This document shows positions 1,452 through 40,308 of a stretch of 40,308 nucleotides of DNA, in pieces (the stretch's first letter is position 1; each line of letters begins with the position of its first letter). Under the pieces are notes generated by a model. That model did no database searches. It saw only the letters and a program-made list of their open reading frames with translations, and had not been told where the DNA came from. A program made the position numbers and the translations under genes. The stretch comes from a virus. Taxonomy: Duplodnaviria; Heunggongvirae; Uroviricota; Caudoviricetes. The stretch is from IMG/VR virus record IMGVR_UViG_2778261673_000007. One strand, written 5' to 3'.

Positions 1452-2579
1452 TCAAACCTTGATTTTTGCCCATTCCTTACCACGATCATCATGGTATTTA
1501 GCTGTCTGGTTAGGCGATTTATGTCCCAGAAGTTTTTGGGTGTCGACGCCCTGAGCTTCGTAAAGTCGCTCAGATAAAGATCTTTGTTCATGGAATGTGG
1601 CGGGCGAACCTTCACCCCAGTCAATGCCTGCTAAATCCCTCGCTTTACTGAAATTCATCGTCAATGTATTGGCTTTTACTTGCGCGCCACGTTCAGCCTG
1701 TGAAGTAGTACGAAAAAAATGTACAAGGTATGGGCTGACTGCATAGTCACGGCAGCGGGCTACTACATCGCGTAAACTCCAGTTAATTGCATTGAGGCGA
1801 AGGGAAAGCGGGATGGCGATTTTGCTCCCGGTTTTTTCTTGGATGACGTGAAGATGATCATCCCAAATATCGCTAAATTTCATACGTGAGATATCACCTA
1901 ACCGTTGGCCGGTAACCAGTGCTAACAGCATGGCATTCCCCATATAACGATGGCGGGCATCTGCGATATCAAAGATTTTTTGCCATTCTTCAAGACTTAA
2001 CCGTTGTCGGGTAATTTTTCTTCTGGGTTGTTTGGTTGCCAGTGCTGGATTATAGCCCGGAGGGACTTCCCCATAGTGTTGTGCCTCCTTGAATACATCA
2101 ATTAGAACGGAGCGGACTACTTGCGCCATCCTCGGTTGCCCGGCAGTGATATACTCGTCAAGTAATTGTGCTATATCCCTTACATCAACTGATGAAATTA
2201 ATTTCATTCCTGCTCGTTCCCTGAGCAAGGATACTGGTTTGGCTTTCTGTTTATAGGTGTTTAGCTTTATATCGCCACTTTCCAGTCTGTCATCCTGGAT
2301 TGCTTGATAGCGATCTAACCAGGTTGACGTTGTGATTGCTTTTCCTTTGCTGGTTGCGATCCTGTCACTGATAGCCAGAATCTGCCGGGTTCTTTGCTCA
2401 GCCAGGCGTGAATTTGCCTCAGTGGCAATAGCAATGGCTTCAGCTTCGTTTGTGCCTAAAGAATGAAACTTCCCGGTCACTGGATGTTTATATCGCCAAT
2501 AGACTTTATTTACTTTTCTACTATAAAGCGGATACAAGTTCGGGACTGAAACATTATTTTTACGTGGTCTGGCTGCCAT
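1452..2579 (-). CDS. intE: Tyrosine site-specific integrase, e14 IntE-like (375 aa)
   Basis: 375-aa ORF with the phage-integrase C-terminal catalytic region (R...HxxR...Y pattern near ...LGHKSPNQTAKYHD); followed on the same strand by an excisionase-like gene; element sits at icd as e14 does. Confidence 0.85.
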   Translation of the reverse strand: MAARPRKNNVSVPNLYPLYSRKVNKVYWRYKHPVTGKFHSLGTNEAEAIAIATEANSRLAEQRTRQILAISDRIATSKGKAITTSTWLDRYQAIQDDRLESGDIKLNTYKQKAKPVSLLRERAGMKLISSVDVRDIAQLLDEYITAGQPRMAQVVRSVLIDVFKEAQHYGEVPPGYNPALATKQPRRKITRQRLSLEEWQKIFDIADARHRYMGNAMLLALVTGQRLGDISRMKFSDIWDDHLHVIQEKTGSKIAIPLSLRLNAINWSLRDVVARCRDYAVSPYLVHFFRTTSQAERGAQVKANTLTMNFSKARDLAGIDWGEGSPATFHEQRSLSERLYEAQGVDTQKLLGHKSPNQTAKYHDDRGKEWAKIKV

Positions 2580-9467: not shown

Positions 9468-10120
9468 TGAGTAATAAATATTGCCAGGCGCTGGTGGAAC
9501 TGCGGAACAAACCAGTCCATGAACTGAAGGAAGTGGGCGATCAGTGGCGCACGCCGGACAACATTTTCTGGGGAATTAACACCCTGTTTGGCCCGTTTGT
9601 TCTGGATCTGTTTACTGACGGTGATAACGCCAAATGTGCCGCGTATTACACGGCGGAAGATAACGCGCTGGCGCATGACTGGTCAGAACGTCTTGCGGAG
9701 CTTAAAGGTGCTGCCTTTGGTAATCCCCCATACAGCCGCGCCAGTCAGCATGAGGGGCAATACATCACCGGCATGCGTTACATCATGAAACATGCCAGTG
9801 CCATGCGTGATAAGGGCGGGCGCTATGTTTTCCTGATCAAAGCTGCCACCAGCGAAGTGTGGTGGCCGGAAGATGCGGACCATATTGCTTTTATTCGCGG
9901 GCGTATTGGTTTTGAACTGCCTGCCTGGTTTATCCCGAAGGATGAGAAGCAGGTGCCGACAGGCGCTTTCTTCGCTGGTGCTATTGCTGTTTTCGACAAG
10001 ACCTGGAAGGGACCGGCAATCAGCTACATCGGGCGCGATGAACTTGAGGCATGTGGTGAAGCCTTTCTGGTGCAGGTTCGCCAGCAGGCGGAAAAACTGG
10101 TCAGGGAGATGGCGGCATGA
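9467..10120 (+). CDS. Phage DNA N6-adenine methyltransferase (Dam-like)
   Basis: Contains the NPPY catalytic motif (GNPPYSRAS) characteristic of N6-adenine/N4-cytosine methyltransferases; start overlaps the previous stop (TAATG). Confidence 0.75.
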   Translation: MSNKYCQALVELRNKPVHELKEVGDQWRTPDNIFWGINTLFGPFVLDLFTDGDNAKCAAYYTAEDNALAHDWSERLAELKGAAFGNPPYSRASQHEGQYITGMRYIMKHASAMRDKGGRYVFLIKAATSEVWWPEDADHIAFIRGRIGFELPAWFIPKDEKQVPTGAFFAGAIAVFDKTWKGPAISYIGRDELEACGEAFLVQVRQQAEKLVREMAA

Positions 10121-10443
10121 CGACGTTAACTCAATGCCAGCAGCAGGTGCTGGATATGCTGATTTCTTACCAGAAAGAGCGTGGCTTTCCGCCAACCAAT
10201 CAGGAGGTGGCAACCATCCTGGGATACCGTTCAGTGAATGCAGCGGTAGAGCATCTTCGTGCACTGGAGAAAAAAGGCGTCATCACGATAAAGCGTGGCG
10301 TGGCCCGGGGGATAACGCTTCATACCGCGGTGAAGGACGACGACAGCGAGGCGGTCGGGATTATCCGCGCACTGCTTGCCGGTGAGGAAAACGGCAGGCT
10401 GCGTGCAGCCCACTGGTTACATGAGAGGGGCCTGAAAGTATGA
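10117..10443 (+). CDS. LexA N-terminal DNA-binding-domain homolog lacking the S24 peptidase domain (108 aa)
   Basis: Aligns by eye with E. coli LexA residues 1-70 (...QQxV.D.I.......GxPPT..E.A..LG.RS.NAA.EHL.AL..KGVI.I..G..RGI.L); no Ala-Gly cleavage site or Ser/Lys dyad follows. Confidence 0.7.
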   Translation: MTTLTQCQQQVLDMLISYQKERGFPPTNQEVATILGYRSVNAAVEHLRALEKKGVITIKRGVARGITLHTAVKDDDSEAVGIIRALLAGEENGRLRAAHWLHERGLKV

Positions 10444-10829
10444 AGCTGATCCTGCCTTTCCCGCCCAGCGTGAACTCGTACTGGCGACACCCCAACAAAG
10501 GGGCGTTTGCAGGTAAGAGCCTGATAAGCGCGGCGGGGCGCAAATTCCAGAGCGCGGCGTGTGCAGCAATAGTTGAGCAGTTACGTCGTCTGCCGAAACC
10601 AACGTCGGCACCTGCTTCAGTGGAGATCGTGTTGTTTCCTCCGGATAACCGGATCCGCGATCTGGACAACTATAACAAGGCGCTGTTTGACGCCCTGACC
10701 CACGCGGGTGTGTGGGAAGACGACAGTCAGGTGAAAAGAATGCTGGTGGAGTGGGGACCGGTTATCCCGGAAGGGAAGGTCGAGATCACTATCAGTAAGT
10801 ACGAGAAACCGGCGGGTGCAGCCGCCTGA
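10440..10829 (+). CDS. rusA: RusA Holliday-junction resolvase
   Basis: 129 aa; N-terminal PFPPSVNSYWRH and central RDLDNYNKALFDALT match the conserved RusA catalytic region (Asp-rich site). Confidence 0.85.
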   Translation: MKLILPFPPSVNSYWRHPNKGAFAGKSLISAAGRKFQSAACAAIVEQLRRLPKPTSAPASVEIVLFPPDNRIRDLDNYNKALFDALTHAGVWEDDSQVKRMLVEWGPVIPEGKVEITISKYEKPAGAAA

Positions 10830-13073: not shown

Positions 13074-13820
13074 TTAATCTGGCATTATGGTAGATAATTG
13101 TGGGCTAGGTTTAACCCCGTAGGTTTCTGATATTCTTTTAACGTTGATACCTACGATTTTTCTGACAGCTCCCAACGAAAATTCTAACTCTTTAATCCCT
13201 GCGTCTTTAGAAGTGTTGTTCATATAATAACGGCATGCTTCTCGAATTGACTTGCAAACGATAAATAGAGGTGATTCATCTGGGATTTGAGAAAGCAAAG
13301 AGGTCAAACATGTTCTTAACTCTTTGAGTGATTCGGCAACAAAACAGGGGTTTTCAAGATGATATTCTACGAACAAAGCCCCTTTATCATCCAATTCATT
13401 TATAATCTTTTTTGCCAGATTTCTTTCATCATGCTGTTGAATATATTTCAAAGCATCGAAGGTAATATTAATCGAACCTTCAAGACAGGAGCTTATAAGG
13501 CTTTCATGATCTTTTTTCCATTTTCTTAATACAGGTGCCGGATAGTCTAGCCCCTGATTCTTATCTATTAATACAGAACAAGTAGCACACAGCCATATGC
13601 CATTGTTAATTGACTTCCTTTCTGTTTCTGATTGTGACATGTCATAGCGTGGGCCATCAGGAGATGCTGCACATATGTGAGCAGCAACTCCTGTCTTGAT
13701 TGATTTATTGCCATCAATTGATGGGCCAATGGTCAATCTAGGGCATGAAGGGTTTGAACAAATGAATGCTGCCCGCTCTGCTAATTTTTTTATAGTGTCT
13801 TTAGAAAAATTATGTCGCAT
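13074..13820 (-). CDS. AT-rich cargo gene: 248-aa protein with N-terminal HNH-like Cys/His nuclease motif and unknown C-terminal domain
   Basis: CSNPSC ... AAHICA ... NNGIWLCATC arrangement resembles a zinc-ribbon HNH nuclease; oriented opposite to flanking phage genes; distinctly lower GC; sits between Q and the late promoter. Confidence 0.5.
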   Translation of the reverse strand: MRHNFSKDTIKKLAERAAFICSNPSCPRLTIGPSIDGNKSIKTGVAAHICAASPDGPRYDMSQSETERKSINNGIWLCATCSVLIDKNQGLDYPAPVLRKWKKDHESLISSCLEGSINITFDALKYIQQHDERNLAKKIINELDDKGALFVEYHLENPCFVAESLKELRTCLTSLLSQIPDESPLFIVCKSIREACRYYMNNTSKDAGIKELEFSLGAVRKIVGINVKRISETYGVKPSPQLSTIMPD

Positions 13821-14086: not shown

Positions 14087-14413
14087 ATGCCTCATAACCC
14101 AAATACATGGCTGGAGTTGGTCCAGAGCTGGTGGCGTGGAGACACACCGCTGGGCGCAGTGATTATGTCGATTGTTATGGCTGGTTTACGTATTGCCTAT
14201 TTTGGCGGTGGTGGCGGCTGGAAACGAAAAACACTCGAAATTCTACTCTGTGGCGCTCTGACGCTGACTTTCGCATCCGCTCTTGAGTATGTCGGATGGC
14301 CTAAATCACTATCTGTTGCCATTGGTGGTGGGGTGGGGCTGATCGGTGTTGATGCTATTCGTGGGGCTGCAATGAGAGTAATCGGTAACAAGTTTGGTGG
14401 CTCTAAGGAGTAA
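14087..14413 (+). CDS. Holin (lambda S-like)
   Basis: 108 aa, hydrophobic helices with a charged C-terminus; resembles lambda S in the ...GGG...TLTFASALEYVG...IGVDAIRG region; immediately precedes the endolysin. Confidence 0.8.
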   Translation: MPHNPNTWLELVQSWWRGDTPLGAVIMSIVMAGLRIAYFGGGGGWKRKTLEILLCGALTLTFASALEYVGWPKSLSVAIGGGVGLIGVDAIRGAAMRVIGNKFGGSKE

Positions 14414-14416
14414 TTT

Positions 14417-14893
14417 ATGCAGGTACTAAATTCCCAGCGTAAAGCTTTCCTGGATATGGTGGCATGGTCAGAGGGAACGGATAACGGGCGACAACTGACA
14501 CGTAACCACGGTTATGACGTTATTGTCGGTGGAGAACTCTTCACTGATTACTCCGATCACCCTCGCAAACTTGTCACGCTAAACCCGAAACTCAAATCAA
14601 CAGCTGCAGGCCGTTATCAACTTCTTTCACGCTGGTGGGATGCTTACCGCAAGCAGCTTGGGTTGAAAGACTTCTCTCCAAAAAGCCAGGATGCTGTGGC
14701 ATTGCAGCAGATTAAAGAGCGTGGCGCTTTACCGATGATTGATCGCGGCGATATTCGTCAGGCTATCGATCGTTGCAGCAATATCTGGGCTTCACTGCCG
14801 GGCGCTGGTTACGGTCAGTATGAACATAAAATCGGTGACCTGATTGCCCGGTTTAAAGAGGCTGGTGGGGTGGTAAATGAAGTTGAGCTATAA
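14417..14893 (+). CDS. Endolysin, lambda R-type lytic transglycosylase
   Basis: Near-identical by recall to lambda R over most of its length (NQRKAFLDM.AWSEGTDNGRQ.TRNHGYDVIVGGELFTDYSDHPRKLVTLNPKLKST.AGRYQLLSRWWDAYRKQLGLKDF...). Confidence 0.9.
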   Translation: MQVLNSQRKAFLDMVAWSEGTDNGRQLTRNHGYDVIVGGELFTDYSDHPRKLVTLNPKLKSTAAGRYQLLSRWWDAYRKQLGLKDFSPKSQDAVALQQIKERGALPMIDRGDIRQAIDRCSNIWASLPGAGYGQYEHKIGDLIARFKEAGGVVNEVEL

Positions 14894-15338
14894 GCTGGTT
14901 ATCGCTGTTTTCTTCGTTTCTGTCGTTGGTTCTTTTATCTGTTCAGTGAATCATTACCACAATAAAGCTATTGAATACAAAAAGCAGCGTGATGAGAATG
15001 CTATGGCATTAGATTCGGCTATGGCGACCATCTCTGATATGCAGAAGCGTCAACGTGACGTAGCAGAACTTGACGCCAGATACACAAAGGAGCTTGCTGA
15101 TGCTAACGCGACTATCGAAAGTCTCCGTGCTGATGTTTCTGCTGGGCGTAAGCGCCTGCAAGTCGCTGCCACCTGTGCAAAGTCAACGACCAGAGCCAGC
15201 GGCATGGGCGATGGAGAAAGTCCAAGACTTACAGCAGATGCTGAACTCAATTATTACCGTCTCCGAAGTGGAATCGACAAGATAACGGCGCAGGTTAACT
15301 ACTTGCAGGAGTATGTAAAGTTGCAGTGTTTGCATTGA
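14877..15338 (+). CDS. Rz i-spanin
   Basis: N-terminal TM helix then coiled-coil periplasmic domain; overlaps endolysin end; contains an embedded +1-frame lipoprotein gene. Confidence 0.8.
   Translation: MKLSYKLVIAVFFVSVVGSFICSVNHYHNKAIEYKKQRDENAMALDSAMATISDMQKRQRDVAELDARYTKELADANATIESLRADVSAGRKRLQVAATCAKSTTRASGMGDGESPRLTADAELNYYRLRSGIDKITAQVNYLQEYVKLQCLH
15100..15285 (+). CDS. Rz1 o-spanin (embedded lipoprotein)
   Basis: Embedded in Rz in another frame; signal peptide with lipobox-like VSAC; Pro-rich mature region; GGAG 7 nt upstream of the ATG at 15100. Confidence 0.7.
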   Translation: MLTRLSKVSVLMFLLGVSACKSLPPVQSQRPEPAAWAMEKVQDLQQMLNSIITVSEVESTR

Positions 15339-15386
15339 CCTTGACTATTTGACAGTTGTTAAATGTTTTCTCCAAATGGGGAGAGA

Positions 15387-16076
15387 ATGATGAGAATTTT
15401 TGGGTGCGGTGTTTTAGTTAGTGTCGTTTATTTCTTTGGCTTAGGTATTACGATCCATGTTCTTGATTTGAACCAGATGACGTCGTGGAATGAGTTTGGA
15501 GATTTTCTTGCTGGTGCATTTTCCCCAGTGGCCTTTTTTTGGCTTGTGCTTGGGTATTTACAGCAACAAAAAGAACTACAGCAAAATACTGAAGCGTTAA
15601 AGTTACAAGCCACTGAGTTGAAAAACTCAGTCGAACAATATAAAGAGATGGTTTCCGTTTCTAAACAGCAATTAGAAAATGAATCAATCAAAGCCATGAC
15701 AGAAAGGCTGGAAAGAGAAAAAGAAACGAAGCCTGATCTATATATGTTGAATCTGGGATGGTCAGTTAAAAGTGGTGATCAGTATGAGTATAATTGGTCG
15801 GTATTTAGTGATGGTAAAACAGCGAAAAATATAAGCTTAACTTTTGACCCTCCTATCGGGGAATATAGCTCGCATTTTTTTAGAAGTAGCAATGGCGCAA
15901 TTAAACTTCCTAAAAATAAAATAAATGCTGGAGATGTGCCTGAACATTTTCGGGTCGTTTTGACTTATGAGAGTATATTGGGGTATTCGTATGAATCTGA
16001 ATATCATTATGAGCATGATATGAATGGTATGTATAATTTAATTGATTCTGCTGATTATCAGCGAACAAAGATTTAA
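15387..16076 (+). CDS. AT-rich cargo gene: two-TM membrane protein with coiled-coil and unknown C-terminal domain
   Basis: Start taken at the ATG pair following GGGGAGAG; two hydrophobic helices, a Q/E/K-rich coiled-coil stretch, then a Tyr-rich C-terminal domain; strong terminator follows; low GC. Confidence 0.5.
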   Translation: MMRIFGCGVLVSVVYFFGLGITIHVLDLNQMTSWNEFGDFLAGAFSPVAFFWLVLGYLQQQKELQQNTEALKLQATELKNSVEQYKEMVSVSKQQLENESIKAMTERLEREKETKPDLYMLNLGWSVKSGDQYEYNWSVFSDGKTAKNISLTFDPPIGEYSSHFFRSSNGAIKLPKNKINAGDVPEHFRVVLTYESILGYSYESEYHYEHDMNGMYNLIDSADYQRTKI

Positions 16077-16118
16077 CTACAGTCGTGGTACTGTCAGAGT
16101 AAATTGTTACTATGAATT

Positions 16119-16143
16119 AGCCTCGCATTAGCGAGGCTTTTTA
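16119..16143 (+). terminator. Rho-independent terminator (AGCCTCGC-atta-GCGAGGCT + TTTTT)
   Basis: Perfect 8-bp stem, 4-nt loop, T-run; directly downstream of the cargo gene ending at 16076. Confidence 0.65.
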
Positions 16144-16154
16144 CTGGTGTTTTT

Positions 16155-16505
16155 ATGCCCCCACGAACCCCAAAAGCCTGCCGCGTTCGCGGTTGCCGCA
16201 ATACCACTACTGACCCGTCAGGCTATTGTGAAAGCCATAAAAGCGAAGGCTGGAAGCAATACAAGCCAGGACAATCCCGTCATCAGCGCGGCTACGGTTC
16301 GAAATGGGATGCTATCCGTGAACGTGTACTGAAACGTGACAAAGGTTTATGTCAGTTATGTCTGCGTGCCGGTGTGGTGCGTGAAGCGAAAACCGTTGAC
16401 CACATCATCCCTAAAGCGCATGGCGGCACTGATGCCGACTGTAATCTGCAGAGTCTGTGCTGGCCGTGTCATAAGGCGAAGACGGCCCGTGAACGGTTGA
16501 AGTGA
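16155..16505 (+). CDS. HNH endonuclease (terminase-associated)
   Basis: CxxC...H...N...H...CxxC pattern (CRVRGCRN ... DHIIPKAHGGTDADCNLQSLCWPCH); located just upstream of terminase genes as in HK97-like packaging modules. Confidence 0.8.
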   Translation: MPPRTPKACRVRGCRNTTTDPSGYCESHKSEGWKQYKPGQSRHQRGYGSKWDAIRERVLKRDKGLCQLCLRAGVVREAKTVDHIIPKAHGGTDADCNLQSLCWPCHKAKTARERLK

Positions 16506-16592: not shown

Positions 16593-16630
16593 TACCCGCG
16601 AAAAATGAAATTTAACCAGGAGTGCCGCAT

Positions 16631-17125
16631 ATGGCTGGAACGGCGGGGCGTTCCGGGCGTCGCCCCAAGCCAACGGCGCGCAAGGCGCTGGCCGGAAACC
16701 CCGGCAAGCGAGCCCTGAATAAAGATGAACCTGTTTTTACGCCCATCAAAGGTGTTGAGCCACCGGAGTGGTTCGCTGAAGAAGATCTCCCTCTCGCTAC
16801 GATCATGTGGCAACTGACAACTAAAGAACTCTGCGGTCAGGGCCTGCTGTGCGTGACTGACCTTGCGGTGCTTGAGCGGTGGTGCGTGGCCTACGAGTTC
16901 TGGCGACGTGCCGTGAAAAATATTGCCAGACAGGGCAACACCATCACCGGTGCAATGGGCGGTATGGTCAAAAATCCGGAGCTGACTGCCAAAAAAGAAC
17001 AGGAGTCCGAGATGAGCAGTACGGGGGCAATGCTCGGACTCGACCCCAGCAGCCGCCAGCGTCTGATTGGCCTGGCGGGGAAGAAGAAAGCCACTAACCC
17101 GTTTCTGAAAATCATCGAATCATGA
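16631..17125 (+). CDS. Terminase small subunit (P27-like)
   Basis: Position immediately upstream of the large terminase; basic N-terminus; start taken at the ATG 9 nt after AGGAG. Confidence 0.7.
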
Positions 17126-18855
17126 GCCGGAAATCTTACCCCAACGTAAATGCTGCAAATCAGTATGCCCGGGATGTCGTGCGCGGAAAGATTGTTGCCT
17201 GCCAGTTTGTGATTCAGGCCTGCCAGCGCCATCTTGATGACCTGATGGCGGAAAAAAGTAAGTCGTTTCGTTACCGCTTCGACAAGGACCTGGCTGAACG
17301 GGCCGCGAAATTTATTCAGCTGTTGCCGCACACCAAGGGGGAGTGGGCATTCAAACGGATGCCCATCACGCTGGAGCCGTGGCAGCTATTTGTGATCTGC
17401 TGTGCGTTTGGCTGGGTCAATAAAGGCACCCGGTTGCGCCGCTTCCGGGAGGTGTACACCGAAATCCCCCGTAAGAACGGCAAATCAGCAATCTCTGCCG
17501 GTGTTGCCCTGTATTGTTTTGCCTGTGATAACGAGTTTGGCGCGGAAGTGTATTCCGGTGCCACGACAGAGAAACAGGCGTGGGAAGTCTTTCGCCCGGC
17601 GCGACTGATGTGTAAACGCACACCCATGCTGACGGAAGCGTTCGGGATTGAGGTTAACGCCTCAAACATGAACCGTCCGGAGGATGGCGCGCGGTTTGAA
17701 CCGCTGATCGGCAACCCAGGTGATGGTTCATCACCCCACTGTGCCGTGGTTGATGAATATCACGAGCATGCCACCGATGCGCTTTATACCACAATGCTTA
17801 CCGGGATGGGGGCGCGACGTCAGCCACTGATGTGGGCCATCACCACCGCCGGGTACAACATTGAGGGGCCGTGCTACGACAAGCGGCGGGAAGTCATCGA
17901 GATGCTCAACGGCTCGGTGCCTAACGATGAACTGTTCGGGATCATCTATACCGTTGATGAAGGTGACGACTGGACCGACCCGCAGGTGCTGGAAAAAGCC
18001 AATCCAAATATTGGCGTGTCGGTTTATCGCGAATTTTTGTTAAGTCAGCAGCAGCGTGCGAAAAATAACGCCCGTCTGGCAAACGTCTTTAAAACAAAAC
18101 ACCTCAATATCTGGGTGTCGGCGCGTTCGGCGTATTTCAACCTGGTGAGCTGGCAGAGCTGCGAGGATAAATCACTGACTCTTGAGCAGTTCGAGGGGCA
18201 GCCGTGCATTCTGGCCTTTGACCTGGCGCGTAAGCTGGATATGAACAGCATGGCGCGACTTTATACCCGCGAGATTGACGGTAAAACGCATTACTACAGT
18301 GTGGCCCCGCGTTTCTGGGTACCGTATGACACGGTGTACAGCGTCGAGAAAAATGAAGATCGCCGGACAGCCGAACGCTTTCAGAAATGGGTGGAAATGG
18401 GCGTTCTGACCGTTACCGATGGTGCAGAGGTGGATTATCGCTACATCCTTGAAGAGGCCAAAGCGGCGAACAAAATCAGCCCGGTCAGTGAGTCACCCAT
18501 CGACCCTTTCGGAGCGACCGGGCTGTCACATGACCTTGCTGATGAAGACCTGAATCCCGTTACTATCGTCCAGAACTTCGCCAATATGTCCGACCCGATG
18601 AAAGAGCTGGAGGCAGCGATTGAATCGGGACGCTTTCATCATGACGGCAATCCCATCATGACCTGGTGTATCGGCAATGTGGTCGGCAAAAACATGCCAG
18701 GTAACGATGATTTAGTGAAGCCCGTCAAAGAGCAGGCGGAAAACAAAATCGATGGTGCAGTTGCGCTGATTATGGCGGTTGGCAGAGCCATGCTGTACGA
18801 GAAAGAAGACACGCTGTCTGACCACATTGAGTCCTATGGGATCCGCTCGCTTTAA
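17122..18855 (+). CDS. Terminase large subunit
   Basis: 577 aa; Walker-like ATPase region and C-terminal nuclease acidic residues (...[11 protein letters not shown]...); overlaps small-subunit stop. Confidence 0.9.
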
Positions 18856-35905: not shown

Positions 35906-37795
35906 TTAATCGTATTTTGGCCATACTTTCAATGCAATTTCCCCCAACTTTTTACCTCGCTCCAGTATTTCACTCTCATCCCATTTATCCTTAAGTATAA
36001 GTGGTATGTTCAGTCGTAGATTGGTGTGGACGATGAGAGCATCACGTTTTTTCAGAAATACAGCATTCTGAACGGAACGGTTTACGCTAAGGTTAAGCAA
36101 AGTTAGATTTCCCAACGTAGCTATCGCTTGTTGCCGTTTCCTTACCAGTAGCTGTTCAGGGGTAAGATCGGTTCCAGACAGAACAATTTGGTTCATTACC
36201 GTAGCATCTGAATTTGTCACCATATGACCATTTTCGAGAGGCCAACAGGAATACCAACTTTGAGGCATAAGATGATCGATATCGAGATTAGAAAGATTTG
36301 GAACATCAGGCTTTTCTGTCTTCACTTGGCGACAAAGTTCTCTTTCAAGTTCCGTTAACATTGAGCGCATTTTCGGTGCGTCGAGCCTGCCAGGATAAAG
36401 TGGAGCATTGATGCAAGCGTTGAGAAATTCTGAGTCCCCAGGCCAACGTGAGGCTTCGCCATTTAAGCTATTGAGGATATTACGTAACTCAATACTGGAA
36501 ATTTCCGTTTTAGACAAGTGTCGCAATACATTCATAAATACATTGTTGTAATTCTTTGGCGTCAGGCCACATACGGATCTTCGTACTACGTAGGAGACAA
36601 GATCATTATACATGGCTGCTTTCTCATCATCGGCGATGTTAGCTATCGAAATGAACAAAGCAAGCGGATAGAGTGTCGTCACATCATAGGCTGCGATGCG
36701 ATGTCCAAAGTGTGAGATGGGGGTTGTGCCAAAACCACCAACCAATTCTTTATATTGTGATGCATATTGTTTGAGGCGCTTTACTTGCAGATCTGCTCGT
36801 TGTGAAGGCAAGTCCTTACTTACATAATCACGATACTCATTGTAAAGGCGAGACAGATCAATTTCACGCTGCCTTTCTGATTGCAATGTCGCATGTACAA
36901 GCCACTCCATGCGTGGTTTATTAATACGTCCACGGCGTTGCTTTTCCGACCAGTATTTATCTTCAAAGATCTTCCACTCATTTTCATATAATTCAATAGT
37001 ATTAATATTTTCATGCTCAGCGCACATAAAGATATAGTTGCGAATAAGATCCGTTGCATGAAGTTCCGCTCCTCGCCCATTTAATGTTTCAAAAATTATT
37101 TGGGCATCATCTTCAGCTTCGAGAAATATGCTTACCAGTTTCAGATCCGTCAAGACAGCCTCAATTAGTGCTACAGCATTTTCTTGTGGTGAGCGGTTTT
37201 CTATTTTAATCCATTTTATAAAGGCTTCAGTAAAAAACCATAATGCCTCTAGTGACGGCGGGTGGTTGAAATGTTTACGTAACGTACCATGTTGCGTGAA
37301 GCTATCAGAAAATACATTACGGAGATCGTCAATATTATCAACATTAAGACTTTGAATAAAATGAGTTTGATCTCGAAAAGTTGGCCACAGTTTGAAGCAT
37401 TCTACCTTTTTATTTCTCATCGTTGCTTCGTTTGTATTTTTCAAGCAAGTCAATACTAACCCTTCCAGTTCAGAAAGGCCTGTAGCACGCAATGATAATC
37501 GAATGGATGCCAGAATATATTGAAGAGTGGTTAAACGTTGCTGGCCGTCAATAATATGTATGGTATCTACACCTAACAAGCTGTTTTTGAGTTGAGGTTC
37601 CAGCACCACCGCGCCGAGGAAATGAGGGGTTGGTTTTGTTCCCGAAAGTCGGCTCTGTGCTTTTTCGAAGATATCCTCCAGCAAAGCTGACCATTGGTTT
37701 CGTTGCGTCCATACGTAGGCACGTTGATAGAATGGAACACGATATTGTCGTTGATTTTGGAAAATTTGCTGGATGGTTAGCGTTTCGGATTTCAT
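35906..37795 (-). CDS. GmrSD-family type IV (modification-dependent) restriction endonuclease: N-terminal DUF262, C-terminal DUF1524/HNH-like
   Basis: N-terminal VPFYQRAYVW and IIDGQQRLTTL motifs (DUF262 NTPase-like); C-terminal DIDHLMPQS and GNLTLLNLSVNRSVQNAVFLKKR motifs (DUF1524 nuclease); 629 aa; strongly AT-rich relative to flanking phage DNA. Confidence 0.8.
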   Translation of the reverse strand: MKSETLTIQQIFQNQRQYRVPFYQRAYVWTQRNQWSALLEDIFEKAQSRLSGTKPTPHFLGAVVLEPQLKNSLLGVDTIHIIDGQQRLTTLQYILASIRLSLRATGLSELEGLVLTCLKNTNEATMRNKKVECFKLWPTFRDQTHFIQSLNVDNIDDLRNVFSDSFTQHGTLRKHFNHPPSLEALWFFTEAFIKWIKIENRSPQENAVALIEAVLTDLKLVSIFLEAEDDAQIIFETLNGRGAELHATDLIRNYIFMCAEHENINTIELYENEWKIFEDKYWSEKQRRGRINKPRMEWLVHATLQSERQREIDLSRLYNEYRDYVSKDLPSQRADLQVKRLKQYASQYKELVGGFGTTPISHFGHRIAAYDVTTLYPLALFISIANIADDEKAAMYNDLVSYVVRRSVCGLTPKNYNNVFMNVLRHLSKTEISSIELRNILNSLNGEASRWPGDSEFLNACINAPLYPGRLDAPKMRSMLTELERELCRQVKTEKPDVPNLSNLDIDHLMPQSWYSCWPLENGHMVTNSDATVMNQIVLSGTDLTPEQLLVRKRQQAIATLGNLTLLNLSVNRSVQNAVFLKKRDALIVHTNLRLNIPLILKDKWDESEILERGKKLGEIALKVWPKYD

Positions 37796-38051
37796 TGTTT
37801 ACCTATAAATAACATTAAGTGACATTCTACAAGAGTAAGAAATTCATCTGAGTCAGAACAATCATTTTTATGTAGTTATGATACAGTGTATTTGTTACTG
37901 GTGAAGTAAAAATAAGAAACCCCGCTTTTGAATGCTGACGCGCTACGGTTTCATTGGATATTTTTTGTCTCTCCTCCATCCCGTTGGTGTTCTGTTTAGA
38001 CTGATAACTTGCTGTTTTAATTGATATTAGTTTCTTGCGCCGCCCAATCAT

Positions 38052-38077
38052 GGTTGGTGGGTTGGTGGGTTGGTGGG
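38052..38077. repeat. Tandem repeat (GGTTGGTG)x3
   Basis: Read directly, about 260 bp upstream of the GmrSD gene start. Confidence 0.5.
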
Positions 38078-38622
38078 AGTTAAATCCACATTGGTATGAA
38101 TAACATAGAATATGAATTAGTGTTTCAGAATTGCTTCAGCCATCACTTTTTAATACGTTCAATTTGAATGTTTATTTCCGAAACAATTTTTTCAGGTTTC
38201 AGTCCCTCGTTAGATTGCACAAAATCTCTAATTTGCATCATTCGATGTGCACAAATTTGTAATTCGCTATAAACACTTAGCTCGTCAGATTCATTTTGAG
38301 ATTGTTCACCTGTTTAAAATTCTACATAAGTATGTGGCGGATTGTGATAAACACGAGAAATCGGGGTTGGCCACCATTCCTCACCGGTCACTACGTCCGC
38401 ATCGAATAGTACAGTTTTGTCAATTTCCATTAATTTCTGGATAAGAACAGAAGTTTTCAAGCGAACCTCCATTTTGCCATAAAGTGGTTATCAAAACGCT
38501 ACGTAAACTATACAAAATCAGCGAGTTATGGTGAAGGTAAAAAAACAAGTTTAGATGTTCGTTAAGTATAAAATTGTTTTAATTCAATTGGATATAATAA
38601 TTTTCTAAATCTAATGCTGCGC

Positions 38623-38778
38623 CATATGGGTTGGACTGAAGCGGCTGACCTGATTGTTAAAGGTATGGAAGGCGCAATCAATGCCAAGACCGTAACTTAT
38701 GACTTCGAACGTCTGATGGAAGGCGCTAAGCTGCTGAAATGTTCAGAGTTTGGTGAAGCGATCATCGAAAACATGTAA
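38623..38778 (+). pseudogene. icd: Displaced 3' fragment of isocitrate dehydrogenase gene (last ~52 codons), marking the prophage-host junction
   Basis: Translation [51 protein letters not shown] matches the Icd C-terminus as recalled; homology begins abruptly after AT-rich sequence at about 38620; no upstream icd coding sequence present. Confidence 0.8.
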
Positions 38779-38800
38779 TCTCTCCATGTGTTAAATATTG

Positions 38801-38833
38801 AAACGGGCGTATAACACGCCCGTTGTTTTATTT
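38801..38833 (+). terminator. icd rho-independent terminator
   Basis: AAACGGGCGT-ataac-ACGCCCGTT followed by GTTTTATTT. Confidence 0.7.
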
Positions 38834-38880
38834 ATGTGGATATTATTAATAGCATATCGAGCATATTTATATGAAGCCCA

Positions 38881-39204
38881 TTACTTGAGCCCATATGGGC
38901 ATATTTTTATAATGCAACTATTATGTAAACATTTATTTGTTATTTTGCTTTCTCCTGGAGGACACTCTTGACTGCTTTTGAGTAAACTCCATAAATCCTT
39001 GTTGAATGGTGCGATGTGATAAATAGTAATAGGATATTCTTTATCCTTAAGGATAATACCAGACTTAACCGGTGTAAATATACTGCCAGGAGGGAGAAAT
39101 ATAGTAGATTGATACCAGATGATCATTTTCATATTACCCCATATGGCTGAAAAAGATATACCACATGTAGGTTGAATTACCGTGTCAATTACTATCCACT
39201 TCAT
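38881..39204 (-). CDS. iraM: IraM-like anti-adaptor protein (107 aa)
   Basis: 107-aa AT-rich ORF in the position downstream of icd/e14 where iraM lies in E. coli K-12; identification from recalled size and neighbourhood. Confidence 0.55.
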
Positions 39205-39664
39205 TTGTTATGTCTTATCCCACGGTATTTAATATGGTTCATTAGGATGTTTATTTCTTGATTTTGCATATGAGTATATTACCCCCCCCTCAAAAAAATA
39301 AATTAATTAAAATAATGGCTTATATAAAATAAAATTTAAAGCAAGGAATCTCAATGGATGTTAAACAAAATGAGATTTTGTGAAAGCAATAAATTATTGA
39401 CTTCGTTTTAGATTTGTTTAGCTATAATGTTATACATTCAAATGACTGAACATCCTGTAATTAAAACATAGCCTTTATGCTACTTTGTGCCAATTTGCTA
39501 AACATTATGGTTGCCTTTTTATATAACGATAATAATGAATATAAGCATGACATGAGAATAAGGTTTCAATTTTTGAGTTATATAGGAATGATTTAACCTG
39601 TTCCTGGCTAAAATACATATAACCGGATGATGACTAAACCAAAATACATGTGCGTTAAGTATTG

Positions 39665-39696
39665 AAACGGACGTGTGGCACGGCCGTTGTTTTTAT
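39665..39696 (+). terminator. Second, diverged copy of the icd terminator region (orphan)
   Basis: ATTGAAACGGACGTGTGGCACGGCCGTTGTTTTTAT is about 85 percent identical to the sequence at 38797-38833; no plus-strand gene upstream. Confidence 0.4.
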
Positions 39697-39903
39697 AAAT
39701 ATGTTAACCGTTATAAAATAACGTATCAAAAGTCAAGTGATCACATTTCAAATATCAAGTTGATAGTATTAGTCTGGTGATTATTTATGGGTGACAATAA
39801 AAAGACAGTATTAATCATCCATAGAGATAGTCTCTGCACTTTTATTTCCATTATGCTAATGCCTTACTGAATTATGAAGCATTTCTTAAGTATCCAACTT
39901 TAG

Positions 39904-40308
39904 CTAGATTAATGGTTTATTATTTTCTACATCTTCAATATATAAAAGCGTATTATCAATGGCGTAGTAACTGCGTTTGTTATGATTAACATCAGTAACC
40001 CACCGGAAAACGCCCGCGCCTGCCAGTGTTGAACAGTATTCCCGAAATGTAGATTTTCCGCAAATATGAAGCAATGCGGCCTCTTTTATTTTAGCAGGGT
40101 TCTTGGTCGTACTAACTTTTAACAGGTTCCTGGTTCCTCTTAATAACAAAACCGTATCATCGTGAGTAATAATTCTGATGTTATCCGTAGCCAGATAATA
40201 AATGTAATGTGCAATACGGTGATGTTTTAATTCTGAATAAAACCAGGAGAAGTTTTGCTCTTTTCTCACTTGCTCAAACATCTTTTGAAAAACAACGACC
40301 TGATCCAT
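39904..40308 (-). CDS. ycgX: YcgX-like DUF1398 protein (134 aa)
   Basis: 134-aa ORF with ATG at the window edge (40306-40308); size and position next to iraM match K-12 ycgX by recall. Confidence 0.55.
   Translation of the reverse strand: MDQVVVFQKMFEQVRKEQNFSWFYSELKHHRIAHYIYYLATDNIRIITHDDTVLLLRGTRNLLKVSTTKNPAKIKEAALLHICGKSTFREYCSTLAGAGVFRWVTDVNHNKRSYYAIDNTLLYIEDVENNKPLI

Follow-up and report, generated by a model that had tools for sequence, protein, structure and literature searches.

Lactococcal AbiC, a protein of the abortive-infection (Abi) type, has two transmembrane (TM) helices and a structural relationship to AbiP, and it reduces capsid protein production by a mechanism that is unknown; in AbiP, the phenotype depends on the TM segment (PMC13064643, a 2026 review). 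The gene described here lies in a 40,308-nucleotide stretch of viral DNA (IMG/VR record IMGVR_UViG_2778261673_000007, hereafter the window), an almost complete Escherichia coli prophage. It is found there between the lysis cassette and the packaging genes, and it encodes a protein of 228 amino acids (aa), hereafter the target protein, whose membrane module is, on profile comparison, remotely homologous to that of the AbiC/AbiP-like putAbiC proteins (PF16872). Taken together with its moron status, the recurrent use of the same slot, defence neighbourhoods of homologues, a sensor/effector-like pattern of evolution and a patchy distribution, this homology suggests that the target acts against phages by abortive infection, as the product of one prophage-borne gene that needs no partner, a reading to which a probability of about one half can be given. 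Known 2TM effectors that disrupt the membrane in abortive infection are Cap15, a 2TM-beta-barrel protein of the cyclic-oligonucleotide-based anti-phage signalling systems (CBASS), and the 2TM protein of retron Ec48. Like the target as predicted, these combine an N-terminal TM hairpin with a small cytoplasmic beta-rich domain; to our knowledge, a long stalk helix such as that of the target is not among their features. Lambda Bor and E. coli Iss share with the target the slot after Rz/Rz1 and the status of morons, but they are outer-membrane lipoproteins of about 97 aa, whereas the target has no lipobox, an unrelated sequence and a predicted location in the inner membrane.

The link to putAbiC runs through AUZ95463.1 of Agrobacterium phage Atu_ph08, the only phage-genome match with an annotated product. 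This protein has the loop, TM2 and the stalk alone in common with the target (NEWGDLLAGLFAPIAFLWLV; motif NEWGD(F/L)LAGxFAPIAFLWLV), its C-terminal part being an unrelated helical domain, and it belongs to a rhizobial family that is itself uncharacterised. A search of 5.8 billion sequences with AUZ95463.1 recovered canonical members of the target family as well as a PF16872 (putAbiC) protein at E = 2.6e-4. In BLASTP, the Atu_ph08-like and putAbiC proteins are 33% identical over 125 aa (E = 6e-14), the alignment spanning TM1, loop, TM2 and stalk. At the level of profiles, hhalign aligns the target family with the Atu_ph08-like family at a probability of 99.3% (E = 7.7e-21), the Atu_ph08-like family with putAbiC at 96.1% (E = 3.6e-9) and the target family directly with putAbiC at 89.1% (E = 2.2e-6), the last again over TM1, loop, TM2 and stalk. 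The AlphaFold2 model of a Serratia putAbiC protein (helix 2-26, a loop, helix 36-108, then an all-helical domain) has the N-terminal layout of the target. In both proteins TM1 is followed by a loop of roughly nine residues that ends in (F/W)GD, and by a TM2 continuous with a long stalk helix, which leaves the membrane at a conserved Gln; both are encoded by single stand-alone genes, with products in the range of 230-300 aa. The two differ in the C-terminal domain, which is helical in putAbiC (FE..FFQML ... RAQLSNYELLxLFYN) and an immunoglobulin-like (Ig-like) beta-sandwich in the target.

The putAbiC proteins match the PADLOC models of both AbiP and AbiC, and PF16872 and these PADLOC models cover only the helical domain (residues 78-250 of putAbiC proteins). 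Because the models match this helical C-terminal domain, in the place of which the target has a beta-sandwich, the target is on sequence grounds not a member of the PF16872/AbiC/AbiP family; the membrane module alone is in common, and it is described by no library model. The connection of this family to AbiC/AbiP through a common membrane module appears to be unreported, literature searches on the accession, on putAbiC/PF16872 and on morons adjoining lysis genes having returned nothing on the family or on putAbiC/PF16872. The Gifsy defence protein GiPD474, which came up in these searches, was set aside as an unrelated ATPase. With regard to the relatives themselves, the AUZ95463.1 gene adjoins a Snf2 helicase gene in the Atu_ph08 genome, and its GenBank label 'methyl-accepting chemotaxis protein I (serine)' (locus L100, 3833-4618) looks wrong; the product is a 2TM-stalk protein with no Pfam match. 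Residues 41-76 of the Serratia putAbiC protein (P0296), which contain the FGD/TM2 motif, weakly match the start of Pfam DUF6082 (E = 0.058), so that the membrane module might extend to DUF6082 too.

The target belongs to a large, uncharacterised protein family that is absent from Pfam. The sequence-only reading, made earlier from the letters of the window, had recognised no family, and this holds as far as Pfam, NCBIfam and PADLOC are concerned, these libraries giving only noise-level coiled-coil or TM matches for the whole protein and for its N-terminal half. It does not hold for PHROG 9267, a group of unknown function that the target matches at 1e-42 (its residues 17-226 aligning with positions 16-255 of the 266 in the profile), nor in view of a large and uniform set of homologues and of the remote homology of the membrane module to putAbiC. 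A word-indexed search found 268 homologues, and a full profile search gave 4,297 clusters at 50% identity with E <= 1e-3, 1,215 of them with E <= 1e-30. The best 150 clusters are all 190-306 aa long and for the most part match over almost the whole profile, some of them having one more TM segment at the N-terminus. Of 185,579 species representatives, 222 have relatives, mainly alpha-, beta- and gammaproteobacteria, and searches of a phage collection and of a plasmid collection yielded only three weak or partial matches each. These homologues and clusters, together with a purifying-selection signature in the N-terminal half, establish that the gene is real.

The architecture given by the earlier reading, namely two N-terminal TM helices, a coiled coil and a Tyr-rich C-terminal domain, is borne out by the AlphaFold2 model (built with a 33-sequence alignment; predicted local distance difference test score 94.1). 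In the 229-aa numbering used for the fold, it consists of helix 2-25 (TM1), a short loop, a continuous helix 34-114 (TM2 and stalk) and a beta-sandwich at 118-226; the C-terminal domain has 11 Tyr in 113 residues, against three in the N-terminal 115. In the stalk, hydrophobic residues recur with heptad periodicity at 60/67/74/81/88 and 63/70/77/84/91, with Ala/Val at a and Leu at d, as in an ordinary parallel zipper. A barrel-type coiled coil with a polar core was considered and dropped, the heptads putting Leu at d, Ala/Val at a and the conserved polar residues on the surface. Since the stalk is by its heptads an ordinary zipper, many invariant residues (Q58, Q59, E62, Q73, E76, N79, S80 and Q83) lie outside the a/d core, and such invariant polar residues exceed what a simple anchor explains. 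As to topology, the E. coli protein has Arg in the N-terminal tail, three acidic residues and no Lys or Arg in the loop between the TM helices, and Lys after TM2, and relatives with an N-terminal extension have a Lys/Arg-rich linker ahead of TM1. The protein is thus probably an inner-membrane hairpin with both termini inside, the stalk and the beta-sandwich being cytoplasmic.

Conservation is distributed very unevenly over this architecture. In a table of 254 sequences (228-aa numbering), the end of the loop, TM2 and the first 40 residues of the stalk are together 82-100% invariant, most positions exceeding 92%. The near-invariant positions of TM2 (G37 D38 F39 xA41 G42 xF44 xP46 xA48 xxW51 L52 xL54 G55) reach 93-100%, and those of the early stalk are Q58, Q59, E62, L63, A69, L70, L72, Q73, A74, E76, L77, N79, S80, V81, Q83 and Q94. 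Mean column entropy is 1.1 bits in this segment, 2.7 bits in TM1 and 3.2 bits in the beta-sandwich. The same division is seen when the allele of the window is compared with the ECCHD184 allele, another E. coli allele with which it is 93.6% identical: residues 1-116 show 14 synonymous and no nonsynonymous changes, the purifying-selection signature referred to above, and residues 117-229 show eight synonymous and 11 nonsynonymous changes. Such a combination of a constrained N-terminal module with a fast-evolving beta-sandwich appears sensor/effector-like.

The second line of evidence comes from the locus itself. The window contains an integrase gene (1452-2579, minus strand), a Q antiterminator gene, a lambda-type lysis cassette, a P27-type terminase, an HK97-type head and a Mu-like contractile tail, and the same prophage is found at tRNA-Thr/proA in E. 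coli strain WP4-S18-ESBL-08. A query running from the lysozyme gene to TerS matches 3,592 of 5,426 complete E. coli genomes, and the gene is present in 12 of the 5,426. In related prophages that do not have it, homology breaks at about 15313 and returns at 16135-16155 (blastn). The interval between spanin and HNH genes is empty in strain BY68, where lysC and HNH are 27 bp apart, and is elsewhere filled by iss (the bor homologue), by an 83-aa open reading frame (ORF) or by two reverse-strand ORFs. The cassette is accordingly a moron in the strict sense of Hendrix and Juhala, i.e., an extra transcription unit between neighbours that are adjacent in related prophages, as the earlier reading had supposed from its position between the lysis cassette and the packaging genes. 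It also has its own terminator and a deviant base composition: the gene, described before as AT-rich, has a guanine-plus-cytosine (GC) content of 36.0% against 51.6% in the 5 kb on either side (36.8% for 15501-16000, with surroundings at 46-57%), and the strong terminator claimed to follow it is a hairpin of -19.3 kcal/mol with z = -3.7 against shuffled sequences. A moron in the bor slot is as a cassette type already well known, and the gene is a good experimental candidate rather than a surprise in itself.

Upstream of the gene a sigma70-like promoter can be predicted, although it deviates from the consensus at position 2 of the -10 element and a stricter consensus scan left the site unflagged. 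Its signature is conserved with the gene across genera. The pattern TTGACx-17/18 nt-T(T)TAAT, with its end 25-30 nt ahead of the ATG, occurs in seven of eight upstream regions of the gene and its homologues, against a background of 3.9% in random 120-nt windows. These regions come from four genera, with two alleles of E. coli, one locus each of Enterobacter and Citrobacter and three loci of Serratia; the loci stand in different contexts, and the proteins are only 45-50% identical between genera. Since the same arrangement is found across genera, the predicted promoter, the gene and the terminator would travel together.

Homologues are found in comparable situations elsewhere. The spanin-to-terminase slot is also occupied in unrelated lambdoid prophages of Enterobacter sp. 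638, Citrobacter freundii and Yersinia enterocolitica by homologues that are 45-50% identical, the prophage of C. freundii having a different terminase type. In Pseudomonas and other gammaproteobacterial prophages, homologues lie antisense in early regions; beside one of them, in a Pseudomonas prophage, is a pair of RVT_1 reverse transcriptase (RT) and bAvd genes resembling a diversity-generating retroelement (L106, 727-2451). A Pseudomonas putida homologue is found in a putative mobile element with a DUF5906 gene, and another homologue in a variable island with caspase-like and CHAT proteins. In three Pseudomonas genomes a queA-adjacent locus holds a homologue with a different defence gene immediately upstream each time, namely a type XI retron RT-protease (1e-176), PDC-S06 (1e-289) and PDC-S60 (8e-81). 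At this hotspot the homologue is accompanied by a small divergent ORF of 109-138 aa (L004 5825-8687; L046 7258-10678; L033 5326-10666). An icd-adjacent island of Serratia marcescens (L098/L099, 4744-7681) contains putAbiC, insertion sequence remnants and a homologue within 3 kb, so that two proteins with the common membrane module stand side by side. The contexts inspected individually are therefore mostly mobile or defence-related. The prophage of the window likewise has defence-type genes in other cargo slots, one for a GmrSD type IV restriction enzyme and one for an HNH/PDC-M68A-like protein, and these too speak for the anti-phage reading. No conserved partner gene was found when the ORFs of 81 loci were clustered and 254 neighbours were scanned with Pfam and PADLOC, the synteny observed being lineage-specific only, and this fits a single-gene system. 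By single-sequence phmmer, almost no phage hallmark genes were detected near non-enterobacterial homologues, so the prophage association outside Enterobacterales and Pseudomonas rests on a few loci inspected singly.

The cassette is an autonomous moron of about 0.8 kb, with one gene between its own predicted promoter and an intrinsic terminator. If the anti-phage reading is correct, it would be expressed in the lysogen. The variable cytoplasmic beta-sandwich would recognise a phage product or another cue of infection, and the conserved assembly of TM2, zippered by the stalk, would be the effector, perturbing the inner membrane either by depolarisation or leakage or by action on a conserved membrane partner. 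By the profile comparisons, the same 2TM-plus-stalk module is common to putAbiC and the Agrobacterium-phage family, each having a different C-terminal domain. Given the position of the gene straight after the lysis genes, its late expression during induction of the prophage itself would presumably be harmless. This division into sensor and effector is held to be clearly less probable than the anti-phage role as such. A still wider generalisation, to be entertained only tentatively, would see in these proteins, with their 4,297 or more clusters at 50% identity, immune sensors of the membrane that consist of one polypeptide and form a very widespread class so far overlooked. In such a class interchangeable cytoplasmic recognition domains (Ig-like, AbiC/AbiP-type helical or Atu_ph08-type) would control one nearly invariant 2TM-stalk effector that oligomerises through TM2 and collapses the membrane potential; the common module would then also explain how AbiC/AbiP of the lactococcal type kill or arrest the cell.

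Several observations weigh against an anti-phage role. The near-invariance of the membrane segment across proteobacterial classes is unusual for a protein engaged in an arms race. The target itself matches no PADLOC model, and neither the whole protein nor its N-terminal half matches PF16872 or the PADLOC AbiC/AbiP models at E <= 10. The link to AbiC/AbiP runs through the membrane module only, whose function is unknown even in AbiC/AbiP (PMC13064643); profile scores can moreover be raised artificially by TM and coiled-coil segments, and in the direct comparison the probability is no higher than 89%. Among 254 genes within two positions on either side of the homologue at about 70 species-representative loci, defence genes are sporadic and many genes are housekeeping. 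In 11 Rhodobacteraceae genomes the homologue adjoins a ParE/GyrB-type gene, starting 4-32 bp inside the 3' end of that gene in 10 of them and after a 13-bp gap in the other (L078), which suggests translational coupling and a vertically inherited operon rather than mobility. Finally, the charge bias for the predicted topology is clear in the E. coli protein and weak family-wide.

The reading closest to the proposed one is superinfection exclusion at the inner membrane, in which the hairpin made by the lysogen would block DNA translocation or insertion of the tape measure without killing. P22 SieA, T4 Imm and HK97 gp15 block an incoming phage at the inner membrane in this way, without cell killing. 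Superinfection exclusion had been put forward in the sequence-only reading, and a prophage moron with its own predicted promoter and a product predicted in the inner membrane is compatible with it, stand-alone genes being typical of such functions. It is nevertheless judged unlikely, as the prediction leaves no more than about 10 residues on the periplasmic side and the variable, presumably specificity-determining domain is predicted to be cytoplasmic; the common module points to relatives of the Abi type, and copies in defence hotspots outside prophages fit general defence better than an exclusion from which the carrying phage profits. Equally unlikely is a host-beneficial membrane function unrelated to phages (lysogenic conversion in a broad sense), for instance that of an oligomeric ion-conducting or stress-responsive protein gated or regulated by the cytoplasmic beta-sandwich. 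Against it, the matches of the fold are generic, Asf1, RhoGDI and Mediator scoring alike. Against ion conduction stands a loop between the TM helices of 8-13 residues, too short for a pore loop or selectivity filter; Kir/KirBac channels have a pore helix and a selectivity filter where the target has a loop of about 10 residues, the target has an 80-residue stalk interposed, and there is no sequence similarity, so the resemblance is architectural only. The fast C-terminal evolution seen between the two E. coli alleles, the very patchy distribution and the recurrence in prophage cargo slots and defence hotspots all argue against a function unrelated to phages.

The position of the gene, co-oriented with and directly downstream of the lysis cassette, also raises a role as lysis accessory, i.e., as a factor that times lysis in the manner of a holin or antiholin and is transcribed directly after Rz/Rz1 as part of the late operon. 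The two TM helices with both termini inside reproduce the layout of class II holins, and there is a weak coiled-coil match to the Rz-like spanin phrog_739 (E = 0.09). However, this gene is missing from almost every related prophage in which these lysis genes occur, a lambda-family holin is already present in the prophage, most homologues lie outside lysis cassettes or outside prophages, and the gene has its own predicted promoter and terminator, which makes the role highly improbable. Identity with a class II holin or pinholin was rejected outright: these are small 2TM proteins of about 70-110 aa whose C-terminus is short and charged and whose genes precede that of the endolysin, and the target, with its 228 aa far above holin size, its folded domain of 110 residues and its gene downstream of Rz, does not fit this description. 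Identity with a structural or lysis protein that all related phages possess, named by the sequence-only reading as its refutation, was not found. The comparison with bor-type morons made by the sequence-only reading is right as to position, since a related prophage has iss at this place, and goes no further. BLASTP against Iss gives E = 5.1, i.e., no similarity, and the only early Cys, the unconserved Cys6 five residues from the start, has no h-region before it and, after it, a TM hairpin predicted in the inner membrane. A surface lipoprotein of the Bor/Iss type giving serum resistance is effectively refuted by these features of the sequence. In the absence of a lipoprotein signal and of similarity to Iss, and with a predicted inner-membrane hairpin whose C-terminal domain is cytoplasmic, serum resistance or receptor masking by the target is unlikely. 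An effector of the CBASS, Pycsar or retron type is not indicated either, as PADLOC gave no match and no conserved adjacent cyclase or RT gene was found over about 80 loci. A retron neighbour, of type XI, occurs at one among about 90 loci; a role as retron accessory was rejected, the RT-protease adjoining the homologue in that locus only and type XI retrons being classed as single-gene systems.

Should the abortive-infection reading prove true, a compact one-gene defence carried by prophages beside their lysis genes would join the catalogue, and a membrane module would be defined that three or more protein architectures have in common, among them that of the AbiC/AbiP-like proteins, the mechanism of which has been a puzzle since the 1990s. 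It would also offer a tractable sensor/effector pair, the natural alleles differing in the beta-sandwich only. Should it prove false, there would still be a large and strikingly conserved proteobacterial membrane family for which Pfam has no model.

The coordinates of the cassette, of the parts of its product and of the neighbouring genes are collected in the table. The gene was reported as ORF 15363..16076 (plus strand), with 237 aa counted from the first ATG, and the identical gene is annotated in RefSeq from ATG 15387 (229 aa; WP_000984534.1, 'hypothetical protein'). ATG 15390 is preferred over both, because a GGAG motif sits 6 nt upstream of it and homologues begin with MKxF or MRxF. Transcription of the cassette is predicted to start at about 15371. 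An Rfam scan of the window gave no match.

Table. Positions of the cassette, of the segments of its product and of adjacent genes in the window; the last row refers to loci of homologues
Feature	Position	Strand	Remarks
Whole inserted cassette (promoter, gene, terminator)	15314..16154	+	about 0.8 kb; blastn against loci L090-L093
Sigma70-like promoter, predicted	15335..15364	+	-35 TTGACC 15335-15340; 18-nt spacer; -10 TTAAAT 15359-15364
Shine-Dalgarno GGAG	15380..15383	+	6 nt before ATG 15390; read from sequence
Coding sequence	15390..16076	+	228 aa; preferred start; stop codon 16074-16076; other in-frame starts 15387 (RefSeq) and 15363 (longest ORF)
TM helix 1	15393..15461	+	residues 2-24; variable except G7; AlphaFold2 and conservation table
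Short acidic loop, probably periplasmic	15462..15497	+	ends in near-invariant N34-E35-x-G37-D38
TM helix 2	15498..15557	+	residues 37-56; almost invariant; continuous with stalk in AlphaFold2 model
Stalk/coiled-coil helix	15558..15728	+	residues 57-113; first 40 near-invariant, remainder variable
C-terminal Ig-like (E-set type) beta-sandwich	15738..16064	+	Tyr-rich, fast-evolving; proposed sensor/specificity domain
Intrinsic terminator	16119..16143	+	16119-16138: 8-bp stem (6 GC), 4-nt loop; then TTTTT tail
Holin (lambda-family)	14087-14413		lysis gene upstream
GH24 lysozyme	14417-14893		lysis gene upstream
Rz	14877-15338		lysis gene upstream
Rz1	15070-15285		lysis gene upstream
HNH	16155-16505		packaging side, downstream
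TerS (P27-type)	16622-17125		packaging side, downstream
TerL	17122-18855		packaging side, downstream
parE-linked homologues of Rhodobacteraceae	about 9900-10700 each		L038, L048, L051, L055, L063, L064, L069, L078, L080, L081, L082

Three tandem TTGAC motifs lie within 20 bp upstream of the gene; besides that of the predicted promoter, these are TTGACT (15341-15346) and TTGACA (15349-15354). The conserved promoter spacing fits the first motif only, and the other two could be alternative -35 elements or a site for a regulator. Elsewhere in the window, the stretch 38000-40308, at 30-37% GC and almost without ORFs of more than 100 aa, could be a degraded island, the end of the prophage or DNA of the host. 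An AT-rich cargo gene on the reverse strand (13074-13820), placed between the genes for the Q antiterminator and the holin, encodes an HNH/PDC-M68A-like product that has no Pfam match at 1e-3, its N-terminal 130 residues matching PADLOC PDC-M68A at 7.5e-27 as well as the CBASS-type 'Effector endonuclease' and SAVED-HNH models; in WP4-S18-ESBL-08 its place is taken by genes for a Dcm methyltransferase and an ATP-dependent nuclease. A second defence cargo of the prophage is a GmrSD-type type IV restriction enzyme of 629 aa (35906-37795, minus strand; PF03235 at 2e-33, PF07510 at 4e-19), whose gene lies in an AT-rich stretch behind the tail-fibre genes.

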